From Clostridiales bacterium (GTDB lineage Bacteria; Bacillota; Clostridia; Oscillospirales; Oscillospiraceae): a stretch of DNA of 64,000 nucleotides. Each line of letters opens with the position of its first letter. Positions within the stretch are counted from its first letter, which is position 1. Below the pieces are notes generated by a model. That model searched no databases, was not told the DNA's origin, and worked only from the letters and a program-made list of their open reading frames with translations. The stretch is taken from positions 9,041-73,040 of the forward strand of contig JAJUGN010000004.1 of assembly GCA_029265975.1 (NCBI GenBank). Reading direction: 5' to 3'. The position numbers were made by a program, and so were the translations under genes. This document shows, piece by piece, positions 8,411-58,648 of the stretch.

Positions 8411-9304
8411 TTACACCTTGTCCTTTCGCATATCCTCGCCGGGAGCGCCGCCCCGGCGATTTTCTTCAAACAAATGCTTGATGGTCTTCCGCGCCTGTGA
8501 AATGGTCGAAGCGGTCGAGTCCAGATCGAGGCTGTCCCTGCTTCTCAGGATGCTCATAAGGTGGGTAATCCTCGGAAGGCGCAGGTTGTGCGCCCTCAGC
8601 AAATCGGGGCGTGAAAAAAGCGATTCCGGAGTGCCGCCGAAGATGACTGAGCCGCCGTCCAGCACATAAACTTCGTCGCAGTATAGGGGCACCAGGTCTA
8701 TATCGTGAGTCGAGATAATCACGGTTATTCCGAGTCTCTGCTTTATTTCATCAAGAAGGTTCAGGATTTCGCTTACTCCCTGGGGATCGAGCCCCGCCGT
8801 CGGCTCGTCGAGTATTATGACGGAGGGCTCCATGACCAGTATCCCGGCGATCGCGACGCGCTTTTTCTGGCCGAAGCTTAAGGCGTGCGTCGGTTTGCCG
8901 ACTATGCTCTCTATTCCCGTCTGCTTTACGACAAGCTCGACCCTTCTCCTTATCTCATCCTCCGAGAGACCGAGCTTCATGAGACCGAAGGAAATGTCCT
9001 TGACGACGCTGGAAGAAAAAAGCTGGTCGTCCGGGTCCTGAAAGACGATGCCTATCTTTCGCCTGATTTCAGTCAGGCCGCTTTTGCTGTAGCTTACCTC
9101 TTTCCCCTCGAAAAAGACCCTGCCGCTTTTGGGAGTCAGAACGCCGTTCAGGTTCAAAAAAAGCGTGGACTTGCCGGCGCCGTTTCCTCCGAGTATGGCG
9201 GTCGTTTTGCCGCGTTTTATCGACATGCTGACATTCTTGAGGGCGGGAGCTCCGTCCTCGTATGAGAAACAGAGATCGGAAATTTCTATAATGTTCATTT
9301 TCAA
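8411..9304 (-). CDS. cbiO: Cobalt ECF transporter ATPase CbiO
   Basis: Walker A GGNGAGKST, signature LSFGQKKR, Walker B ILDEP. Start/stop overlap with cbiQ. Confidence 0.9.
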   Translation of the reverse strand: MKMNIIEISDLCFSYEDGAPALKNVSMSIKRGKTTAILGGNGAGKSTLFLNLNGVLTPKSGRVFFEGKEVSYSKSGLTEIRRKIGIVFQDPDDQLFSSSVVKDISFGLMKLGLSEDEIRRRVELVVKQTGIESIVGKPTHALSFGQKKRVAIAGILVMEPSVIILDEPTAGLDPQGVSEILNLLDEIKQRLGITVIISTHDIDLVPLYCDEVYVLDGGSVIFGGTPESLFSRPDLLRAHNLRLPRITHLMSILRSRDSLDLDSTASTISQARKTIKHLFEENRRGGAPGEDMRKDKV

Positions 9305-10071
9305 AGCCTTTCGATCAAGCCTATCGCCGTAAAAGAAACCGCGGCGAGAACGGTCAGCCCCGTGAGAAGAAGGCTCGGCTCCTCCTTTTCGGCGAGATAG
9401 TCGAAGTTGCCTTCAAAACCTCTGGAGTCAAGCGCGAGGCTTATGCGGTCAACGCGCCTGAGAGCCCTTATAAAAACCGTGGTCACAAGCTCCCCGAGCG
9501 AGGCCATGCTGTTTTTTAAGCCTTTGTAGCCTAGACGCGAGGCCTGCGCCGTCCGGATTCTCTGGGCTTCGTCCCAGATTATGAAAATAAAGCGGTAAAT
9601 AAGCTCCATAAGCTCTACAAAAACGCCGGGCGTCCTTCTCCGCAGAAGGGAGAGGAAGGAGTTCATCGGGGTGTTGAGAGAGAAAAAGTAGAGGCATGAA
9701 ACCGCCCCCAAAGACTTCAGCAAAAGGTTTACGCCAAGGCTCAGAGACTGCCGGCTGATACCGAAATAAGAGCCGAAGAGCCTGAAATAAAAAAGCGCCG
9801 CACCGGTGTCCGTTATTTTGTTTATCACTATCGTCACAACTCCGGTAATGAGGAAGGCAAACGGCACCAGCATCAGCTCCAGGTATTTTGAGGGTCGGCA
9901 GCCGCCCAGAAAAAGGGTGGCTGCCGACATTACAGCGATAGTCAGCAGGCTTATGGCATTCGAGCTGAACGCAAGGCAAATAAGCATCAGGCAAACGGAA
10001 AAGAGCAGCTTGCTTGACGCTTTGACGCCCGAGATTTTCGATTGGTATGCGTGTTTGTCTATGCCGCTCAC
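9301..10071 (-). CDS. cbiQ: Cobalt ECF transporter transmembrane (T) component CbiQ
   Basis: Hydrophobic 256 aa protein positioned between cbiN and cbiO with 4-nt overlaps. Confidence 0.85.
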   Translation of the reverse strand: MSGIDKHAYQSKISGVKASSKLLFSVCLMLICLAFSSNAISLLTIAVMSAATLFLGGCRPSKYLELMLVPFAFLITGVVTIVINKITDTGAALFYFRLFGSYFGISRQSLSLGVNLLLKSLGAVSCLYFFSLNTPMNSFLSLLRRRTPGVFVELMELIYRFIFIIWDEAQRIRTAQASRLGYKGLKNSMASLGELVTTVFIRALRRVDRISLALDSRGFEGNFDYLAEKEEPSLLLTGLTVLAAVSFTAIGLIERL

Positions 10072-10355
10072 TTTTTTTCGCTCGCCTTGTGCCTTTCCGA
10101 AAGCTTTCCGAAGCCGAAGCCGATAATTAAACCGCCTATCGAGGCCTGAAGCGCGAAAAGAAGAGATTCGACCTCGCCGCTCGGGGGCTCGTAAATCGAT
10201 TTGAACCAGGGCTCGTATTCGGGCCTGATTTCGGATATGACGGATTCGGCCTTATCGTCCGCTCCGCCGTACTCTCCCTTCACGATTGCGAGGGGCACGA
10301 CGCATATAAGCAGCGCAAGAGCCAAAAGAAGGAGATTTTTTTTCCAAAGCTTCAT
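10068..10355 (-). CDS. cbiN: Cobalt transport protein CbiN
   Basis: About 95 aa with two TM segments (MKLWKKNLLLLALALL... and ...GGLIIGFGFG). It sits in the canonical position after cbiM. Confidence 0.8.
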   Translation of the reverse strand: MKLWKKNLLLLALALLICVVPLAIVKGEYGGADDKAESVISEIRPEYEPWFKSIYEPPSGEVESLLFALQASIGGLIIGFGFGKLSERHKASEKK

Positions 10356-10368
10356 TTTACAGCCCTCC

Positions 10369-11145
10369 TTAATCCGCTTTAAGCGCCTGAAGCTCGGCGT
10401 TGCTGTACTTTTTGAGTCCGTTATAAACAATGACGGTCAAAATGCCTTCCGCAACGGCGAGAGGCAGCTGCGTAAAGGCGAAAATGCCAAGAAATTTCGC
10501 CGCCGAAACGAAGAAGCCGCCGCCCGAATCTGGGAAGGCCGCTCCGAGTTGGAGCGAAGTCACGATATATGTAAAGATGTCGCCAATAAAAGCCGCTATG
10601 AAAACCGAAACGGTGCTTTTTACGCCCAGCTTCTTAAGCAGGCGGTAGACGAAATAAGAGGCAAAGGGACCGGCTATGCCCATCGAGAAAGTGTTTGCCC
10701 CGAGGGTGGTCAGCCCGCCGTGAGCCAGCAGTATGGCCTGAAAAAGCAGAACGATGACGCCGATCACCGACATGGCGGTGGGCCCGAACATGATCGCGCC
10801 CAGTCCGACTCCCGTCGGGTGGGAGCAGCTCCCTGTCACGGAAGGCAGCTTAAGCGCGGAAAGAACGAAGGCAAAAGCGCCGCACATCGCGAGCAGAAGC
10901 AGCATTCTTGAATTTCCGCTTATCTTTTTCTTAATGGAGAAGAAGCCTTTCACGACGAAAGGGATGCAAATCGCGCCCCAGGCGACGGCCCAGCCGGGAG
11001 GGAGAAAGCCCTCCATTATGTGCATCGCTTTTGCGCCCATAACGGGAAAAGCCAGAACAACCGCCAAAACAACGGCGGCTTTCTGCATGTATTTTTCAAT
11101 TAAAACGCTGTTTTTCGATTTTGACGCTCCGGTTTTTAAGCGCAT
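10369..11145 (-). CDS. cbiM: Cobalt ECF transporter substrate-capture component CbiM
   Basis: [10 protein letters not shown] motif after a signal-like N-terminus. GGGAGG RBS 5 nt before the ATG at 11145. Confidence 0.9.
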
Positions 11146-11156
11146 TTTTACCTCCC

Positions 11157-11188
11157 GGAAAAAACAGCACCCTCCGTCGGGAAGGTGC
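11157..11188 (-). terminator. Intrinsic terminator forming the expression platform of the cobalamin riboswitch
   Basis: Minus strand reads GCACCTTCC-CGAC-GGAGGGTGC followed by TGTTTTTT, immediately 5' of the cbiM RBS. Confidence 0.6.
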
Positions 11189-11235
11189 GTCAATTCCGGC
11201 CTTCGATTGTTTGCCATTGAAATCGACCCTCCTTA

Positions 11236-11428
11236 TGCTTCGTAAGGTTTGAGTTTTCTCGGACGAAAGATGAGCGACATCTCCCGCCCCGGTTCCGGCT
11301 CAGTATCCTGACTAATGCTTCGTCGCGCGGGCCGCCTTCCCGGTTTCATCCAGTGGCATAATGGCCGTAGCTCGGCAAATACAGTTGCGAGACAGCACGG
11401 GATTCTCACCCGTTTCCTGTAACCGAAT
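11236..11428 (-). promoter_or_regulatory. Cobalamin (B12) riboswitch aptamer
   Basis: Minus strand reads ...GGAAACGGGTGAGAATCCCGTGCTGTCTCGCAACTGTA... and B12-box-like GCCACTGG...CCGGGAAGGC. It lies upstream of cobalt uptake genes. Confidence 0.85.
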
Positions 11429-11433
11429 CCGCA

Positions 11434-11463
11434 AATTATAATGTTTTGCAAAACATTATAATT
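11434..11463. repeat. Perfect 30-bp palindrome carrying TATAAT on both strands (operator or divergent -10 candidate)
   Basis: AATTATAATGTTTTGCAAAACATTATAATT is its own reverse complement. It lies just upstream of the riboswitch 5' end. Confidence 0.5.
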
Positions 11464-11749: not shown

Positions 11750-14152
11750 ATGAAAGAGATGCTTGAACGCATAGAGAGGATTAAAAAAAGAGTCGTTGTC
11801 GATCACTATCCGATCTGCATCGAGAAATTCCGCATAGCGATGGATATGATAGAGGAGACCAAAAACGACCCCGTAATTGTCCGGAGAGCGAAGATACTGA
11901 GCGCGACGCTTGAGCGGGTGCCCATAGCCATCGCGCCCGACGAGCTTATCGTCGGCATAGGCGCTTCAAAACCCATGGGGCTTGAAATCGACCCCGATTA
12001 CGGAATCTGGACTCAGGACGAGATAGATTCGCTCATCGAGGACGGCTACCAGATGGATCCGCAGGATGTGATAGATCTCCAGGAGCTTAACAAAAAATAC
12101 GATCCCCCCACGCTTATCGGGCAGATGGGAAACATCGTATATGAGAATGAACGCATAATTTCACTGCTTAAGGCGGGAATAATACTCCCGCCGTGGAAGG
12201 ATAAGCAGGAGGGCAGGGGCGTCGGCGGCGGCTACTGCCAGTCCGGCCTCGGCCTCGGGCCTTCGCTTATTCTGCTTTGCATAGACTACACAAAGATGCT
12301 GCACCTCGGCACCAACGCGATGATCAGCCAGGCCAGGGAGGAGAGGAGCAGGCTGCGCTTCGACGAGAAGGGAGCCGTCGCCAAGTTCAATTATTACAAT
12401 TCCGTGATCATGTGTCTGGAGGCCGCTAACAAGCTCGCGCTGCGCTATTCCGCCCTCGCCAGGGAAATGGCGGAAAAGGAGGCGGACCCGAAGCGCCGGG
12501 CGGAGCTTTTGCAGATAGCCGAAAACTGCGCCTGGGTGCCCATGAATCCCGCCAGAACCTTCCGGGAGGCCGTGCAGTGCTTCTGGTTCCAGTTCCTCAT
12601 GCTCAGCCCCTCTACGACGCTGCCGGGAGCGCGCTTCGACCAGTACATGTACCCTTACTACAAGGCGGACATCGAAGCCGGGCGCATAACGAGAGACGAG
12701 GCTCTGGAGCTGCTGTGCCTGCTGCGCCTTAAGGACATGGAGCTTAACCGCACCTCGGGAAAAAATAACCGCAAGAAGAACGCGGGAATGGCCAAGTGGC
12801 ACAACTTCACCATCGGAGGAGTCGACAGGCACGGCAACGACGCGACAAACGACATAACATATCTGCTGCTTGACGCGGCGGCCATAACAAAGGTGCCGCA
12901 CCACACGCTCACGCTCCGAGTACACTCCGGGACGCCGGAAAAGCTGATGCTGAGGGCTCTCGAGGTGGTCAGGATGGGCATGGGAATGCCGGCCTTTGTG
13001 GGCGACGAAAGCTACATAAAGTGCTTTACCTCCCGCGGACTGCCCGTCGAGGACGCAAGGGAGTATGTAATGACAGGATGCCTTGACGCGAACGTGCCCG
13101 GCCTTTCACGCACCGGCCCGGTGCCGATGATAACCATTCCGCTCATTTTTGACATATTCAGGCATAACGGCGTCAACGTAAAAAACGGAGAGCTCTGCGG
13201 CATACGCACGGGCGAGTTCACGGAGTTTGAAACCTACGAGGAGCTTTTTGAAGCCTTCAGGAAGCAGCTCGACTACTGTCTGCGCATCGTGGGGGAAAAG
13301 AACAACATAGAGCTTACCATCACTCAGGAGCTGCTGCCCGACCCGATACGTTCCGCCACGATGTGGCGCGGCATAGAATCCGGGGAGGACACCTTCCGCC
13401 GAACCATGCCGTTTGAAAACGGAGCGGTGCTCAATCCCATAGGCATGGTGAACGTGGGGGATTCTCTCGCGGCAATAAAGAAGCTGGTATTCGACGAGAA
13501 AAAGTACACGCTAAAGGAGCTTAACGACGCGCTTGAAGCCAACTGGGTCGGATTTGAGGATATGCAGAGGGATTTCCTAGCTGCTCCTAAGTTCGGCAAC
13601 AACGACGACTATGTGGATAAGATTGTAGCCGAATGCTATCAGATGTTCTGCGATATCGCGGCGACCATGCCGACGATACTTGGCGGCGTTCACATACCTA
13701 CGGGCATATCAATCACGTCCCATCAGCCGGGCGGAGGACTCACGGGCGCTACTCCGGACGGCCGCAAGGCGGGGGAAATACTTGCAGACGGCACGATGTC
13801 TCCGATGCACGGAATGGACGAACACGGCCCGACGGCGGTGCTGCAGAGCGCCATGAAAATAAATCAGGATCCCTTCCAGGCCACGCTGCTCAATATGAAA
13901 TTCCACCCCTCGGCGCTGAAGACCGAGGAGGATCTTATAAAGCTCGCCAGCATGATAAAGGTATATCTCACGAACGGCGGAAAGCACATACAGTTCAACG
14001 TAGTAGATAAGACAACGCTGCTGGCGGCGAAGTCCGATCCCAAGACCTACCGCGACCTCATAGTGCGCATAGCGGGATACAGCGCATATTTCGTGCAGCT
14101 GAACGAGCAGATGCAGGACGAGGTAATAGCCCGCGTCGAGCACAGGCTGTAA
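11750..14152 (+). CDS. Glycyl radical enzyme, PFL2/dehydratase-like clade, substrate unknown (paralogue 1)
   Basis: 800 aa. C-terminal glycyl radical motif LIVRIAGYSAYF. Cys loop VMTGCLDANVPG. GAGGAA RBS. Confidence 0.9.
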   Translation: MKEMLERIERIKKRVVVDHYPICIEKFRIAMDMIEETKNDPVIVRRAKILSATLERVPIAIAPDELIVGIGASKPMGLEIDPDYGIWTQDEIDSLIEDGYQMDPQDVIDLQELNKKYDPPTLIGQMGNIVYENERIISLLKAGIILPPWKDKQEGRGVGGGYCQSGLGLGPSLILLCIDYTKMLHLGTNAMISQAREERSRLRFDEKGAVAKFNYYNSVIMCLEAANKLALRYSALAREMAEKEADPKRRAELLQIAENCAWVPMNPARTFREAVQCFWFQFLMLSPSTTLPGARFDQYMYPYYKADIEAGRITRDEALELLCLLRLKDMELNRTSGKNNRKKNAGMAKWHNFTIGGVDRHGNDATNDITYLLLDAAAITKVPHHTLTLRVHSGTPEKLMLRALEVVRMGMGMPAFVGDESYIKCFTSRGLPVEDAREYVMTGCLDANVPGLSRTGPVPMITIPLIFDIFRHNGVNVKNGELCGIRTGEFTEFETYEELFEAFRKQLDYCLRIVGEKNNIELTITQELLPDPIRSATMWRGIESGEDTFRRTMPFENGAVLNPIGMVNVGDSLAAIKKLVFDEKKYTLKELNDALEANWVGFEDMQRDFLAAPKFGNNDDYVDKIVAECYQMFCDIAATMPTILGGVHIPTGISITSHQPGGGLTGATPDGRKAGEILADGTMSPMHGMDEHGPTAVLQSAMKINQDPFQATLLNMKFHPSALKTEEDLIKLASMIKVYLTNGGKHIQFNVVDKTTLLAAKSDPKTYRDLIVRIAGYSAYFVQLNEQMQDEVIARVEHRL

Positions 14153-14170
14153 CATAACCCTGAAAGGAAA

Positions 14171-14202
14171 GGGAGCTCCCGGAGAATTTTCCGGGAGCTC
14201 CC
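14171..14202. terminator. Bidirectional terminator between the two convergent GRE genes
   Basis: Perfect 12-bp stem GGGAGCTCCCGG / CCGGGAGCTCCC with an 8-nt loop. Confidence 0.8.
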
Positions 14203-14222
14203 TCTTAATACATTTTTGCGGC

Positions 14223-16613
14223 CTAGACCACGTTTGAGGTGCGCTTGATTATCTCGTCCTGGACCGGCCTTGTGAGCAGGGTGAAGTATGTGCTGTACCC
14301 GGCTACGCGGACGATAAGATCCCTGTAGTCCTGGGGCTTTTCCTGGGCGGCCATGAGAACCTTGTTGTCAACGACGTTGAACTGGATGTGCTTTCCGCCG
14401 TTTGTGAGATAAATCTTAACGAGAGAGGCAAGCTTCATAAGGTCCTCCTCGGTCTTCAGCGCCGAGGGGTGGATTTTCATGTTGAGAAGCATCGCGTTGA
14501 AGGGGTCCTGATTTATTTTCATAGCGCTTCTGAGAGAAACGGTCGGCCCGCTTGTGTCCGTTCCCTGCATCGGGGAAACCGCGCCGTCGGAGAGCGTCTC
14601 GCCTTTTTTGCGCCCGTCTGGGGTTGCGCATGTATAGGAACCGCCGGGCGCGTGGGAGGTGATGGATATGCCGGTGACTCTCGGCGGCTCGCCGTAAATG
14701 CCCCTGAAGGTGTTCGCGCTGTCGGCCCAGAACTGGTAAAGGTCGGCGGCGAGATCGTCCGCCACGTCGATGCCGTTGCCGTATTTGGGAGCCTCAAGGC
14801 AGAGCGCGCGAATATCCTCGTAGCCTTCCCAGTTTGCTTCTATGGCCTTGTAGAGGTCCTCCATGGTGAACTTTTTCTGCTCGAAGACAAGGGTCTTGAC
14901 GGCTGCCATGGAGTTGGCCACGTTTATTACGCCGACAGGGTTCAGCATTGAGGCGTTTTCGTAGGGCATTTTGCGGTCCATCATGTCACGGCCGGACTTT
15001 ATTCCGTCATATGTAAACGCGGAATGGACGACGTCGTTCTGCAGCGCCCTCGTGCAGCGGCAGAGTATGTTGTGCTCCTCGTTGTACATGCTCATAAAAT
15101 GGTAAAGCTGCTTTTTGAACGCCGCGTAGAAATCCTCAAAGGTCTTGAAATCCTTCATTTCGCCGGTCGCAGGGCCTATCTGCTCGCCAGTGGCCGTATT
15201 CACGCCGTTGTGCATCGTGATATCCAGCACTCTCGGCACTATGAACATGCCGAGCGCGTTTATGCGGGACTTTCCGGGCAGGTTGAGGTCAAGGCAGCCG
15301 GCAAGGGCGTAATCGCGCGCCTCCTCGAGAGGAACCCCCTGACCGACAAGCCCGCTTATATAGCTCTCGTCGGAGACGAAGGCGGGCATTCCAATACCGG
15401 TTCTGACCAGCTCCATGGCCTTTTTCATGAGCTCGTCGGGAGTGTCTTTGTTCACGCGGACCGTGATCGTGTACTGGGGCGTTCTGACTTCGTTAGCCGC
15501 CTCGATTATGAGATAGGAAAGCTCGTTCGTGGCGTCCTTGCCGTTCCTGTCGACGCCGCCGATAAGGAAGTTGTGCCATCTCGCCATGCCGGCCCACTTG
15601 TCTCGCTGCTGCTTGCCGCCGTTTACAAAATTGAACTGCATGATCTTGATGCGAAGGCATTCTATGAGCTCCAAAGCCTCGTCGCGCGTAAGCTCGCCGC
15701 TCTCGATGTCTTTTTTGTAATATGGGTACATTATCTGGTCGAAGCGCCCGCCGGGGGTGACTCCGTGAGCTATCATCATCCAGTAGAACCAGAAGGCCTG
15801 CATCGCGTCCCGGAAATTGCGCGCCGGGTGCTCGGCTATCCAATGGCAGCTGTCAGCCATGCGCAGGAGCTCGGCCTTGCGGCGCTGGTCTGAAGTGGAC
15901 TTTGCCTTTTCCATGCAGACGTCGCCGTAACGGTGGTACATGCGGACCATTGCGCCGAGGGCTATTATAACGGCCTGCAGGTACTGGGATTTGTCGAAGG
16001 ATTCGCTGTCGGTGTAACGAAGGTTCCTGAGCTCCTCCTCCGCGTCGTCGAGGGTCGCCTTGACTCCGTATGAGATTATCCTGGCATAGTCCGGAACAAA
16101 GAAGCTGAGTCCTATGCCCATGCCCCAGCCGAAGCCGGCTCCGCCGCCGCCGCGGCCCTTCTGCTTATCCGTCCAGGGCGGGCAGAGCACGCCGGACCTG
16201 ATGAAGGGCCACAAGCGCGCGTCGTCGTAAAAAGTGCCCTGCCATTCATAAAACTGGCGGCCCTTTCCCGCCCAGAAGGAGTCGAGCTCGCGCAAAGCCT
16301 TCCGGTCCTCCGGGTCGATGGTGAAGTTGCCCTGCAAAAGGCCGTCCAAATCCTCGTCGTCCCAGAAGGGGCCCCAGCAGGAGGCCTCCATTCCCATGGG
16401 TTTTGAAGCGACGTTCCCCACGATCAGCTCGTCTTCGTCCACATAAATGGTTCTCTTGTCAAGGTAGTTTGCGGTTTCGTAGGCTCTCTGAAGTATGCTC
16501 GGAAGCCCCTCGTGAGCGCTCCATGCCTCAATGACAAGCTTCGCTTTCTCCGCGCATATGGGATACTTATCCACATTCAGCGCCGCCAACATTCGTTTGA
16601 TCCTGTCGGTCAT
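14223..16613 (-). CDS. Glycyl radical enzyme, PFL2/dehydratase-like clade, substrate unknown (paralogue 2)
   Basis: About 796 aa. LIVRVAGYSTYF glycyl motif. Cys loop ALAGCLDLNLPG. Colinear similarity to 11750-14152. The RBS context GAAAGCGAGGAATA is shared with paralogue 1. Confidence 0.9.
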   Translation of the reverse strand: MTDRIKRMLAALNVDKYPICAEKAKLVIEAWSAHEGLPSILQRAYETANYLDKRTIYVDEDELIVGNVASKPMGMEASCWGPFWDDEDLDGLLQGNFTIDPEDRKALRELDSFWAGKGRQFYEWQGTFYDDARLWPFIRSGVLCPPWTDKQKGRGGGGAGFGWGMGIGLSFFVPDYARIISYGVKATLDDAEEELRNLRYTDSESFDKSQYLQAVIIALGAMVRMYHRYGDVCMEKAKSTSDQRRKAELLRMADSCHWIAEHPARNFRDAMQAFWFYWMMIAHGVTPGGRFDQIMYPYYKKDIESGELTRDEALELIECLRIKIMQFNFVNGGKQQRDKWAGMARWHNFLIGGVDRNGKDATNELSYLIIEAANEVRTPQYTITVRVNKDTPDELMKKAMELVRTGIGMPAFVSDESYISGLVGQGVPLEEARDYALAGCLDLNLPGKSRINALGMFIVPRVLDITMHNGVNTATGEQIGPATGEMKDFKTFEDFYAAFKKQLYHFMSMYNEEHNILCRCTRALQNDVVHSAFTYDGIKSGRDMMDRKMPYENASMLNPVGVINVANSMAAVKTLVFEQKKFTMEDLYKAIEANWEGYEDIRALCLEAPKYGNGIDVADDLAADLYQFWADSANTFRGIYGEPPRVTGISITSHAPGGSYTCATPDGRKKGETLSDGAVSPMQGTDTSGPTVSLRSAMKINQDPFNAMLLNMKIHPSALKTEEDLMKLASLVKIYLTNGGKHIQFNVVDNKVLMAAQEKPQDYRDLIVRVAGYSTYFTLLTRPVQDEIIKRTSNVV

Positions 16614-16695
16614 CGTATATTCCTCGCTTTCTGTTCCGTGTTTTTCAAAATACAACAAGTCTGAACTCAGGTGCGTATTGGTCTTTTTCAGCTAA

Positions 16696-29098: not shown

Positions 29099-29339
29099 GA
29101 GGCGGGCGCTTTGCGCCCGCCTCAGCTTGTAGAAAAACTTGTTTACAGCAAAAAAGCTTCGCAGAATTTCCGCCACGAATGGCGGAAACAAAGTCAAATC
29201 TGTCGTTTCCGGAGGCGTGTACGTCGGAAATGACACCTCTCATGACGGGCGCGGCAGAGCGGCCGTCATTAAACCCCCTTGTCAAAAAAGCCCTTTTGTT
29301 TTTTTTGACAGTCTGAGGCGGGCGCTTTGCGCCCGCCTC
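29099..29339 (+). mobile_element. Hairpin-duplicating structured element, copy 1 (191-nt unit 29124-29314 plus 25-bp flanking direct repeats)
   Basis: GAGGCGGGCGCTTTGCGCCCGCCTC is present at 29099-29123 and 29315-29339. The internal unit is near-identical to 56490-56680 and 58428-58622. Confidence 0.7.
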
Positions 29340-42671: not shown

Positions 42672-42762
42672 TATGCTTATATTTGGCAAACCTGCGGAAA
42701 CGCCGGGACGCAAAACTCTAGAGCCTAAGTCGCTTGCGATAAGGCAGTCAGTTGCATGTTCG
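42672..42762 (+). promoter_or_regulatory. c-di-GMP-I (GEMM-I) riboswitch-like aptamer 1
   Basis: GGCAAACCTGCGGAAACGCCGGGACGCAAAACTCTAGAGCC...AAGGCAGTCAGTTGCA matches the GGCAAA / GNRA hairpin / GACGCAAAGC core as recalled from the Vc2 aptamer. Confidence 0.7.
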
Positions 42763-42900
42763 GAGCCTGATAATAATGGGCGGCTTATGTTTTTCCGGGG
42801 GTGCAGCTGGGGTGACCTGATTGCGCCTCGTGTTTTGTCTTTGAAGCTCCCGTTTTACGATTTAATTGAATATTTTTCTTCTCATACTTTAATCCTCTCC

Positions 42901-42940
42901 CCAGGGAAGCGGCGCTATGCGCCGCTTCCCTGGCTTTTAC
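42901..42940 (+). terminator. Strong intrinsic terminator ending the riboswitch-1 transcription unit
   Basis: Perfect 15-bp stem CCAGGGAAGCGGCGC / GCGCCGCTTCCCTGG with loop TAT, followed by CTTTTAC. Confidence 0.8.
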
Positions 42941-43011
42941 ACAAAAAATCGAAAATAATAGAAAAATTTAACATAAAACTATTGCATTTTACCAATTTGT
43001 ATGATAACATC

Positions 43012-43100
43012 AGCTTAAATAAAGGCAAAGCAGGCGAAAGCCTGTGACGCAAAGCTATCAGGGCCCTCGACCTTCGGTCAGGGCAGCCAGTTGCTGCTAT
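43012..43100 (+). promoter_or_regulatory. c-di-GMP-I (GEMM-I) riboswitch-like aptamer 2
   Basis: GGCAAAGCAGGCGAAAGCCTGTGACGCAAAGCTATCAGGGCC...GGTCAGGGCAGCCAGTTGCTGC. Confidence 0.8.
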
Positions 43101-43130
43101 TGATTTTTCAATGGTGGCATTTTGCTTTTT
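43093..43130 (+). terminator. Terminator/expression platform of aptamer 2
   Basis: GCTGCTATTGA-TTTT-TCAATGGTGGC (G-U wobbles) followed by ATTTTGCTTTTT. The 5' arm overlaps the aptamer 3' end. Confidence 0.6.
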
Positions 43131-43144
43131 AGAGCATCGAAGAT

Positions 43145-43238
43145 AAGTAAAAAGGGCAAAGCAGGCGAAAGCCTGTGACGCAAAGCTATCAGGGCCCTCG
43201 GCCTCCGGTCAGGGCAGCCAGTTGCTGCTATCGTTTCT
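43145..43238 (+). promoter_or_regulatory. c-di-GMP-I (GEMM-I) riboswitch-like aptamer 3
   Basis: Near-identical copy of aptamer 2. The differences (GACCTTCGGTC vs GGCCTCCGGTC) keep the hairpin pairable. Confidence 0.8.
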
Positions 43239-43317: not shown

Positions 43318-44172
43318 ATGAGCGAGAACGAAATAATACTCGATAATATTCTCAGCGAGGTAATGGACTACATACGCCAGCTCAAGACCAAACGCTCCGC
43401 GTTCGGCGGCTACGACAAGGAATATGTATTGTATACGATTCAGGAGATCTGCAACCTTTACGAAAAGCAAATATCAAAAATATGCTCCGACAACAAGACC
43501 CACTTTGACATGCTGAACAAGGAGATTTCCGAGCTTCGGCAGCGAAACGAGGTTCTCTCACGCCGCACAACTGCCGATCCTTCCATAATCGACAAGGCGA
43601 ACCAGTCGATAGCGGAGGCCAACTCCAGGATAGAGGCCGCAAACAACCATATTGCGAAGCTGCAGGCGCTCTATGAAGAGGCGGAGGCTAAGCTCAGGGA
43701 AAAGGAGGCCTACATCGGCAGCCTGCTTGCCGGAAGCCAGGCGCCCCTGAGCGGCGCAAGAGACTCCGGCAGGGAAGTTTTGAGAAATGACCGCGTCGTT
43801 CAGAATGCCGATACGAGCGCGGAGGTAAAGGCCTCTGCGGAGGAGATTATAAGGCGGGCGCGAGACGAGGCGGAAAAGCTCCGCAATTTCGCAAGATGCG
43901 AGGCGGAGTCGATTATACGCGAAAGGCGCGCGGAAATGCGTGCCGAAGAGCGGCTGCACGAGGAGCTTCTTTCCGAGCTTAAGAACAAGTATGTGAAATA
44001 CAGGGAGTTCTTTTCCAAAATGCAGGAAGGGATAAAGGAAATTGAAAGCGAAATAGACCCCATGATCTTAAGGCACGACGAATTCAAGGCGGAAAACTAT
44101 GACTCCTACGACAGGATTTCGCATCTGCCCTGGAATGACGATTTCCCCAACAATTTCAGAAAAGGAAATTAA
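43318..44172 (+). CDS. Coiled-coil protein with DivIVA-like N-terminal motif
   Basis: 284 aa. SAFGGYDKEYVLYTIQEI resembles the DivIVA F..GYD..EV motif. The rest is heptad-rich (E/K/R/A/L). Confidence 0.65.
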   Translation: MSENEIILDNILSEVMDYIRQLKTKRSAFGGYDKEYVLYTIQEICNLYEKQISKICSDNKTHFDMLNKEISELRQRNEVLSRRTTADPSIIDKANQSIAEANSRIEAANNHIAKLQALYEEAEAKLREKEAYIGSLLAGSQAPLSGARDSGREVLRNDRVVQNADTSAEVKASAEEIIRRARDEAEKLRNFARCEAESIIRERRAEMRAEERLHEELLSELKNKYVKYREFFSKMQEGIKEIESEIDPMILRHDEFKAENYDSYDRISHLPWNDDFPNNFRKGN

Positions 44173-46088: not shown

Positions 46089-46268
46089 GCAGGGCGGCAT
46101 GTGCCGCCCTGCATCAGCTTGTCGAAAAACTTGTTTACAGTAAAAAAGCTTCGCAGAATTTCCGCCACGAATGGCGGAAAAAAGTCAAATCTGTCATTTA
46201 CGGCGGCGTGTACGTCGGAAATGACAGCTCTTATGACGGGCGCGGCAGGGCGGCATGTGCCGCCCTGC
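46089..46268 (+). mobile_element. Hairpin-duplicating structured element, copy 2 (3'-truncated, ~132 nt) with 24-bp flanking direct repeats
   Basis: GCAGGGCGGCATGTGCCGCCCTGC is present at 46089-46112 and 46245-46268. The internal unit matches the first ~130 nt of the other copies. Confidence 0.6.
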
Positions 46269-56453: not shown

Positions 56454-56716
56454 TGGTATAATATCTGCAAAACAGATATTATACCATGCAGCTTGTCAAA
56501 GAACTTGTTTGCAGCAAAAAAGCTTCGCGGAATTTCCGCCACGAATGGCGGAAAAAAGTCAAATCTGTCATTTCCGGCGGCGTGTACGTCGGGAATGACA
56601 CCTCTCATGACGGGCGCGGAAGAGCGGCCGTCATTAAACCCCCTTGTCAAAAAAGCCCTTTGGGCTTTTTTGACAGTCTGTGGTATAATATCTGCAAAAC
56701 AGATATTATACCATGC
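56454..56716 (+). mobile_element. Hairpin-duplicating structured element, copy 3 (191-nt unit 56490-56680 plus 36-bp flanking direct repeats)
   Basis: TGGTATAATATCTGCAAAACAGATATTATACCATGC at 56454-56489 and 56681-56716. The unit has imperfect TIRs and four serial hairpins. Confidence 0.75.
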
Positions 56717-58401: not shown

Positions 58402-58648
58402 GGGGACCGCCTTTTTGGGCGGTCCCCGCAGCTTGTCAAAAAACTTGTTTACAGCAGAAAAGCTTCGCAGAATTTCCGCCGCGACCGGCGGAAACAAACA
58501 CAAATCTGTCATTTCCGGCGGCGTTTACGTCGGAAATGACACCTCTCATGACGGGCGCGGCATAGCGGCCGTAATGCAGCCCCCTTGTCAAAAAAGCCCT
58601 TTGGGCTTTTTTGACAGTCTTAGGGGACCGCCTTTTTGGGCGGTCCCC
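58402..58648 (+). mobile_element. Hairpin-duplicating structured element, copy 4 (195-nt unit 58428-58622 plus 26-bp flanking direct repeats)
   Basis: GGGGACCGCCTTTTTGGGCGGTCCCC at 58402-58427 and 58623-58648. The unit is colinear with copies 1 and 3. Confidence 0.75.

Follow-up and report, generated by a model that had tools for sequence, protein, structure and literature searches.

The repeat at positions 58402-58648 of the window (the whole 64,000-nt stretch of Clostridiales DNA analysed here) is very probably one insertion of a miniature, non-autonomous DNA transposon (MITE, ~195 nt) which targets hairpins and duplicates them whole. The MITE is bounded by 15-bp terminal inverted repeats (TIRs; 5'-CAGnnTGTCAAAAAA), has no conserved open reading frame (ORF) and is part of a wider superfamily of the Bacillota. 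It integrates at palindromic, mostly terminator-like hairpins of any sequence, and the whole hairpin is found on both sides of the element; thus, each flanking gene keeps a hairpin of its own. An earlier, sequence-only reading of this site had seen in it a folded nucleic acid maintained by selection and did not recognise the flanks as the whole-hairpin target duplication of a transposon, which is the main biology at this site.

The copy at 58.4 kb, the fourth in the window, lies between convergent genes for a carboxylesterase (PF00135) on the left and a PilZ protein on the right, and both the sequence and these assignments bore out the identical 26-bp flanks that had been reported at the esterase/PilZ junction. 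The 26-mer GGGGACCGCCTTTTTGGGCGGTCCCC is present twice, at 58402-58427 and 58623-58648, with all 26 positions identical, which is far above chance expectation. The left target-hairpin copy (GGGGACCGCC-TTTTTG-GGCGGTCCCC, predicted dG of -24.3 kcal/mol) starts 4 nt past the esterase stop codon and the right one is located ~60 nt beyond the stop codon of the minus-strand PilZ gene, no strand being assigned to either. The element proper extends on the plus strand from CAGCTTGTC to GACAGTCTTA (58429-58622), and G58428, between the duplication and the initial CAG, is assignable to neither. Of the 15 positions of the plus-strand 5' TIR (58429-58443, CAGCTTGTCAAAAAA), 13 agree with the consensus 3' end read as its reverse complement (CAGACTGTCAAAAAA); the 3' TIR, also annotated on the plus strand, occupies 58607-58622 (TTTTTTGACAGTCTTA). 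Four plus-strand hairpins were delineated within the element, namely H1 (58473-58494), with a compensated closing pair G58481-C58486; H2 (58507-58541), with the stem TGTCATTTCCGGCG / CGTCGGAAATGACA; H4 (58547-58576, CATGACGG..CCGTAATG), one pair of which is broken in this copy by a C>A change; and H3 (58586-58616), in which an inner inverted copy of the TIR is paired with the 3' TIR and which resembles an intrinsic terminator (AAAAAAGCCC-TTT-GGGCTTTTTT). Copy 4 is 88-94% identical to the 27 other copies and has a fold z-score of -7.

Searches with BLAST and nhmmer yielded 28 hits to the element, corresponding to 27 independent copies (the locus ends L016 and L023 being the two sides of one copy), in three genomes, that of the window and two MAGs (GTDB: Bacillota bin55, GCA_029268085.1, JAJUHD01, and Clostridiales bin70, GCA_029267755.1, JAJUHS01) whose copies were located with a pattern anchored outside the hairpins. 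They are ORF-less repeats of 192-197 nt with the ends 5'-CAG..CTG-3'; the unit starts with CAGCTTGTCAAAAAAC and stops with GCTTTTTTGACAGTCTG, and its 15-bp terminal inverted repeat matches at 13 of 15 positions. The family tree is star-like, with a grouping that does not track the genomes, and variation among copies is greatest in the TIRs, consistent with long inactivity. Several features by which a MITE is known were found together, in that the element is shorter than 300 bp, dispersed in many copies, without coding capacity, bounded by TIRs and flanked by a target duplication that is apparent against an empty site, although its length (23-61 bp) is atypical of MITEs. No reading frame is conserved among copies. 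The 1-nt indel that had been said to break the ORFs crossing the unit (GGAAACAAAG versus GGAAAAAAG) sets copies 1 and 4 apart from copies 2 and 3; indels break every frame, and no conserved ORF emerged with more copies, as the sequence-only reading had anticipated. A coding interpretation was considered and rejected, several frames being open by composition yet broken by indels between copies and radically altered by compensatory substitutions. Rfam searches of the window and relatives at gathering and permissive thresholds returned no relevant match and nothing near any gathering score, and no promoter-like site was found in or before the element. When the element and its TIR region were compared by BLAST to plasmids and phages, there was no match or chance matches only, the two best having no transposase nearby; the TIR pattern was absent from viral contigs and had one match in JGI metagenomes, which falls within a gene and is attributable to chance. 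Three extra hits to the TTTCCG..CGGAAA motif outside the element were judged to be due to chance. As to the assemblies themselves, many of the contig ends at L003, L013, L014, L016, L017, L019, L022 and L023 stop ~140 nt inside an element copy, which is k-1 for k141 assemblies. With so many copies at contig ends, the repeat evidently fragments MAG assemblies, and copy numbers are underestimated.

The window harbors four copies of the ~195-nt repeat, at about 29.1, 46.1, 56.5 and 58.4 kb. The first (29099-29339, plus strand) lies between convergent secG and dnaI-like genes and consists of a 25-bp hairpin duplication (29099-29123 and 29315-29339) around an element at 29123-29315. The second (46090-46268, plus strand) has a 23-bp hairpin at 46090-46112 and 46246-46268 and an element at 46115-46245 of which the 3' end is gone, the final ~60 nt being absent. 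In the region 46240-46268, the breakpoint coincides with a match of 10 of 11 nt that links the inside of the element to the right-hand hairpin. This suggests a short-homology deletion, which probably ran from the internal GCAGAGCGGC to its look-alike GCAGGGCGGC in that hairpin. Copy 3 (56454-56715, plus strand), with an element at 56489-56680, is flanked by a duplicated 35-bp palindrome (56454-56488 and 56681-56715). This target is not a GC-rich terminator but the AT-rich palindrome TGGTATAATATCTG-CAAAA-CAGATATTATACCATG, which carries TGGTATAAT (an extended -10 motif) on both strands and is promoter-like; it is located between divergent DUF2099 and esterase genes, such that one palindrome copy adjoins each gene after duplication. 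Elsewhere in the window, three tandem c-di-GMP-I riboswitch aptamers (42675-43229, 60-64 bits each), the last two of which make up the 117-nt direct repeat D3, precede an ORF without Pfam match (43318-44172). A cobalt-transport operon (cbiM / cbiQ / ABC-ATPase, 8411-11217) has a cobalamin riboswitch upstream of it (11280-11442, minus strand, 83.8 bits), and two paralogous pyruvate-formate-lyase-like glycyl-radical enzymes (800 and 811 aa) are encoded tail to tail at 11750-16658.

The best direct repeat across the element was sought in the 17 copies having both junctions. A direct duplication of a hairpin was found in 13 of them, with lengths of 23, 24, 25, 25, 26, 32, 33, 33, 33, 36, 37, 37 and 61 bp, and two further copies cut by contig ends fit a hairpin duplication as well. 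Every duplicated hairpin has a different sequence (predicted dG of -13 to -31 kcal/mol), the duplication ends 0-2 nt from the base of the stem in most copies, and a comparison of the flanks of family copies revealed no conserved flanking motif. Most targets look like bidirectional terminators between convergent genes; since copy 3 sits in an AT-rich palindrome between divergent genes, it is the shape of the target that matters rather than its function. An empty site was identified in L029 (GCA_964418735.1), which has the same convergent URO-D/HAD gene pair as L009, with a URO-D protein 92% identical. The 60-nt URO-D/HAD spacer of L029 contains a single hairpin (AAAATGCACCGG-ATTAT-CCGGTGCATTTT) where L009 displays hairpin, element and hairpin, providing direct proof that insertion duplicated a palindromic target. 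The window copies yielded no empty site, the closest homologue of the esterase (81% identity) not being syntenic, and neither did the 61-bp duplication of L008, whose homologues likewise lack synteny. This longest duplication (L008, 1100-1440; 2 mismatches) spans two adjacent hairpins between convergent genes for an MTHFR-like protein and a radical-SAM maturase and is not accounted for by a single cruciform. The exceptions are the family copies L005 and L012 and the relatives L035B and L037, where the hairpins of the two sides differ and nothing is duplicated; the relative L036 has no matching duplication.

No transposase or autonomous insertion sequence (IS) with matching TIRs was found in the window, in the 24 loci, or in searches of plasmid, phage, viral and JGI metagenome collections. 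Scanning 40 ORFs of the window with Pfam revealed housekeeping genes only, the loci contained no multi-copy ORF and no multi-copy DNA common to them, and the high-coverage contig L013 had no transposase. At the protein level, a search of 1.84 billion representative proteins with the translated element likewise returned no transposase among its matches. The only extra TIR-like site was a solitary TIR in L005 (1-140; CAGACTGTCAAAAAAC at 4-19), which lies 137 nt upstream of a copy with a degenerate 5' TIR of its own. An unrelated segment comes after the solitary TIR and contains a TTTCCG-N13-CGGAAA hairpin; the whole (4-337) may be a composite variant of greater length.

Closest to the element in outcome are IS1630 and ISMhom-1, IS30-family elements of Mycoplasma which are reported (PMC3317919, PMC2853133 and PMC7648426, all citing Calcutt 1999) to use inverted repeats or terminator-like hairpins of differing sequence as targets and to duplicate the repeat in full, with variable duplications of 16-26 bp. 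Whereas IS1630 shares with our element the duplication of a whole variable inverted repeat, a likeness drawn from insertion anatomy, both ISs are autonomous elements of 1.3-1.4 kb with 27-bp IRs and an IS30-type transposase; the element is 195 nt long and gene-less, has 15-bp TIRs, resides in Clostridia and yields duplications of up to 37 bp and, once, 61 bp. [quoted passage not shown] The target choice is the same as here, a hairpin without consensus, but the outcome is opposite, as IS1272 deletes or replaces the hairpin with no duplication and the element duplicates it (13 of 17 copies and the relative L038). No IS1182-type gene was found for the element. Membership of the IS30 or IS1182 family would depend on finding the partner transposase, the apparent likeness to either resting on insertion anatomy. 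IS30 of E. coli itself has a preference for near-palindromic hot spots (PMC9333248), but attacks the center of the palindrome with a 2-bp stagger, giving a 2-bp duplication, where the element duplicates the entire palindrome. Classical bacterial MITEs are small, TIR-bounded, ORF-less, intergenic, multi-copy and highly base-paired, and are enriched between convergent genes (PMC10969869, PMC3049150). Correia, RUP, BOX, ERIC, Nezha and Chunjie have these features in common with our element, yet their duplications are short and fixed (2-9 bp), and a keyword search of a 2024 review of prokaryotic MITEs found no mention of one that duplicates an entire hairpin.

From this anatomy and the published models, we infer that a transposase supplied in trans would attack both strands where an extruded hairpin or cruciform has its 5' feet, two points near in space and one palindrome apart in sequence, and that gap repair would then copy the hairpin. 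Hypothetically, attack at the outer feet of two neighbouring hairpins would produce the 61-bp duplication, and attack at facing feet would give each side a hairpin of its own while duplicating little or nothing. The internal hairpins, including H3 with its pairing of inner TIR copy and 3' TIR, are cis features of the element lineage; their putative role is most likely in recognition by the same structure-reading transposase, the alternative being a structured plus-strand transcript.

To what extent these internal hairpins are kept within the family was assessed by scoring four helices (H1, H2, H4 and H3; 45 pairs) on a 28-row alignment, of which 97.4% of the helix cells pair. The closing pair of H1 had been put forward by the sequence-only reading as a textbook covariation. 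The change itself is real, in that H1 reads TTTCCGCCA-CGAA-TGGCGGAAA in copies 1-3 and TTTCCGCCG-CGAC-CGGCGGAAA in copy 4 (58473-58494), with A-T replaced by G-C through changes on both arms, plus one loop change; as structural evidence it is weak, a compensated pair being expected by random placement of substitutions with a chance of 5.9% in copy 4 alone, 17% in any of the four window copies and 48% among the 27 copies. Three pairs are doubly changed in the family (in H1 the closing pair of copy 4, in H2 one of L002a, and in H3 one shared by three bin55 copies), compared to 0.7 in shuffles (12/500); random placement of each copy's substitutions predicted 0.65 copies with a compensated pair, with P(>=1) = 0.48 and P(>=3 events) = 0.023. 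The 46 changed stem cells comprise 25 non-wobble mismatches, 13 plus-strand G.U, 3 A.C and 5 compensated cells, such that 28 of the 46 are disruptive. The further claim that copies 1 and 3 bear G-U changes only holds for the 11-bp core of H2 but fails beyond it, since disruptive changes are present in H3 and extended H2 of copy 1; the H2 of copy 2 is likewise disrupted, by a C>A. Single G.U changes outnumber A.C changes 13:3 (nominal P = 0.02), a figure that rises to ~0.12 by our own arithmetic when the general A>G excess, which is present at unpaired positions, is allowed for. Divergence from the consensus was 2.4% at paired and 4.1% at unpaired columns, and 1.46% versus 1.99% (P = 0.25) when singletons only were considered and search anchors and termini removed. 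Within the family alone, support for selection on the stems is thus modest, and the stems decay almost like unpaired positions; individual genomic copies, copy 4 included, decay almost neutrally after insertion.

These observations bear on the rival explanation that survives best, namely that compensatory changes and clean palindromes arise without selection, through DNA-level template switching that corrects one arm of a palindrome against the other. We hold this to be possible, if clearly less probable than not as an account of the hairpins. Its signature is loop inversion, and such inversions were found between the two target-duplication copies of L010 (3520-3770; TTGC versus GCAA, the loop of the right hairpin copy being inverted) and probably of L024 (1-240), where the loop of the right copy appears to be inverted likewise. 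The same kind of loop flip is polymorphic in the element's own H3 (TTT versus AAA among copies), and DNA-level palindrome dynamics thus operate in the element. The copy 4 change, moreover, includes a tandem AT>CC creating CCGGCGG, a heptamer also present in H2; the compensated pair of copy 4 may be due to chance or to templated correction within the palindrome. Against template switching as the general explanation, 41 mismatched or wobble cells remain uncorrected in the family, and the position, length and architecture of the hairpins are kept across subfamilies although stem sequences are almost wholly replaced.

The latter observation comes from diverged relatives. The translated-element search had returned 54 short spurious ORF clusters; DNA was fetched for four of these 54 matches, and five diverged relatives were aligned. 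They share with the family a TIR (CAGnnTGTCGAAAAA), an invariant H2 stem with a conserved G.T, the linker ACNTCTCATG and the design of H3. Relatives from other metagenomes display the same four-hairpin architecture, with the stem sequences of H1 and H4 largely replaced. In their alignment (52 pairs, 95.3% paired), 11 of 52 pairs are doubly changed compared to a shuffle mean of 3.0 (0/500) and 0-3 in slid controls, with 4 of 10 pairs compensated in H1 and 6 of 15 in H4, a 15-bp stem that is 100% paired. This covariation among relatives indicates selection on the structure of H1 and H4 in the element lineage. H2 and the linker are conserved as sequence instead; the H2 stem sequence is invariant across subfamilies, its G.T is conserved in 32 of 32 sequences examined, and H2 thus looks sequence-specific. 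The fold of H2 is more stable on the plus than on the minus strand (-22.9 versus -17.0 kcal/mol with RNA parameters, -13.6 versus -11.6 with DNA parameters; L038 rows left out). The insertion mode is conserved too, as the relative L038 shows a perfect 35-bp hairpin duplication. In one human-gut metagenome contig (L035, 154-612), two diverged tandem copies with a single hairpin (AAGCCCACCCTTTCGGGGCGGGCTT) between them were merged by gene callers into one 170-aa ORF (P0366). The expectation of the sequence-only reading that stem substitutions would prove compensatory beyond chance with more sequences was borne out by the relatives (11 versus 3.0, 0/500), with modest support from the family (3 versus 0.65). 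Its conclusion that a folded plus strand and not a protein frame is maintained stands insofar as the relatives' covariation upholds the structure and the frames are broken, but the single-copy evidence cited for it was too weak to carry that conclusion. Selection on structure acts in the mobile-element lineage and not at the copy 4 locus, and the folded form is RNA or single-stranded or cruciform DNA, with a modest plus-strand bias.

Covariation of H1 and H4, the G.U retained by H2 in all sequences together with its more stable plus-strand fold, the 13 plus-strand G.U against 3 A.C single changes and the terminator-like 3' hairpin H3 would all suit an element that serves first of all as a gene or module for a structured plus-strand RNA, such as an sRNA or a 3'-UTR/terminator cassette, with hairpins selected at each locus for RNA function and mobility secondary. 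This we consider unlikely. In addition to the lack of a promoter-like site and of an Rfam match, the near-unpaired rate of stem decay with mostly disruptive changes and the fall of the G.U excess to about P = 0.12 argue against it, as do the TIRs and target duplications, which mark a DNA transposon. The C-GCA-G and C-GGA-G apical loops of the relatives are, furthermore, classic stable DNA triloops and are not known as typical RNA loops.

Mobilisation by a single-strand (HUH/Y1) transposase, in the manner of IS200/IS605-derived PATEs or REP/BIME, with the hairpins acting as ssDNA recognition sites, is improbable in the extreme. Several subterminal covarying hairpins, the plus-strand bias and the presence of all four window copies on the strand with positive GC skew are in keeping with it, and PATEs, REP/BIME and integron attC sites resemble the element in that a hairpin structure is recognised on one strand and its arms covary. 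Unlike the element, however, they have no TIRs or duplication and insert at fixed short motifs or site-specific sites, the HUH/Y1 families beside a fixed tetra- or pentanucleotide, whereas the element has TIRs, 23-61-bp duplications, no conserved flanking motif and an orientation that is mixed within contigs. Weakest of all, and hardly credible, is integration by a Cas1/casposase-like integrase or retro-mobilisation: Cas1-Cas2 also duplicates a repeat, one of roughly 30 bp that is often palindromic, and has a preference for cruciform borders, with duplication sizes that overlap those seen here, but the duplications of the element follow the length of each hairpin (23 to 61 bp) with no fixed ruler, the window contains no cas1 or reverse-transcriptase gene, and neither a poly-A tail nor any other mark of a retroelement is present in the element.

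The MITE family described here constitutes a natural data set of more than 15 insertion events and one empty site, from which it is seen that DNA shape can guide a transposon to its target, with the hairpin duplicated whole. In the literature, we met this way of inserting for IS1630 and its relative ISMhom-1 and among the pathways of the published IS1272 model; it is seen here in a MITE superfamily present in uncultured Clostridia and human-gut metagenomes. The element also accounts for a class of intergenic repeats out of which gene callers make small, spurious ORFs (54 protein clusters of this kind). Its covarying hairpins raise the question of whether the donor, too, is recognised as a structure. 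At its most speculative, a long shot in our estimation, the superfamily might represent an undescribed and widespread class of Bacillota transposons whose yet-unfound enzyme would read shape and not sequence at donor and target alike, the covarying H1 and H4 on the plus strand (ssDNA or RNA) marking the donor and any hairpin foot marking the target. If true, this would be a sequence-independent, structure-guided insertion system that copies terminators rather than destroying them. Once the hairpin is duplicated, either neighbouring gene has a terminator or promoter palindrome to itself, which may be why the element is tolerated.
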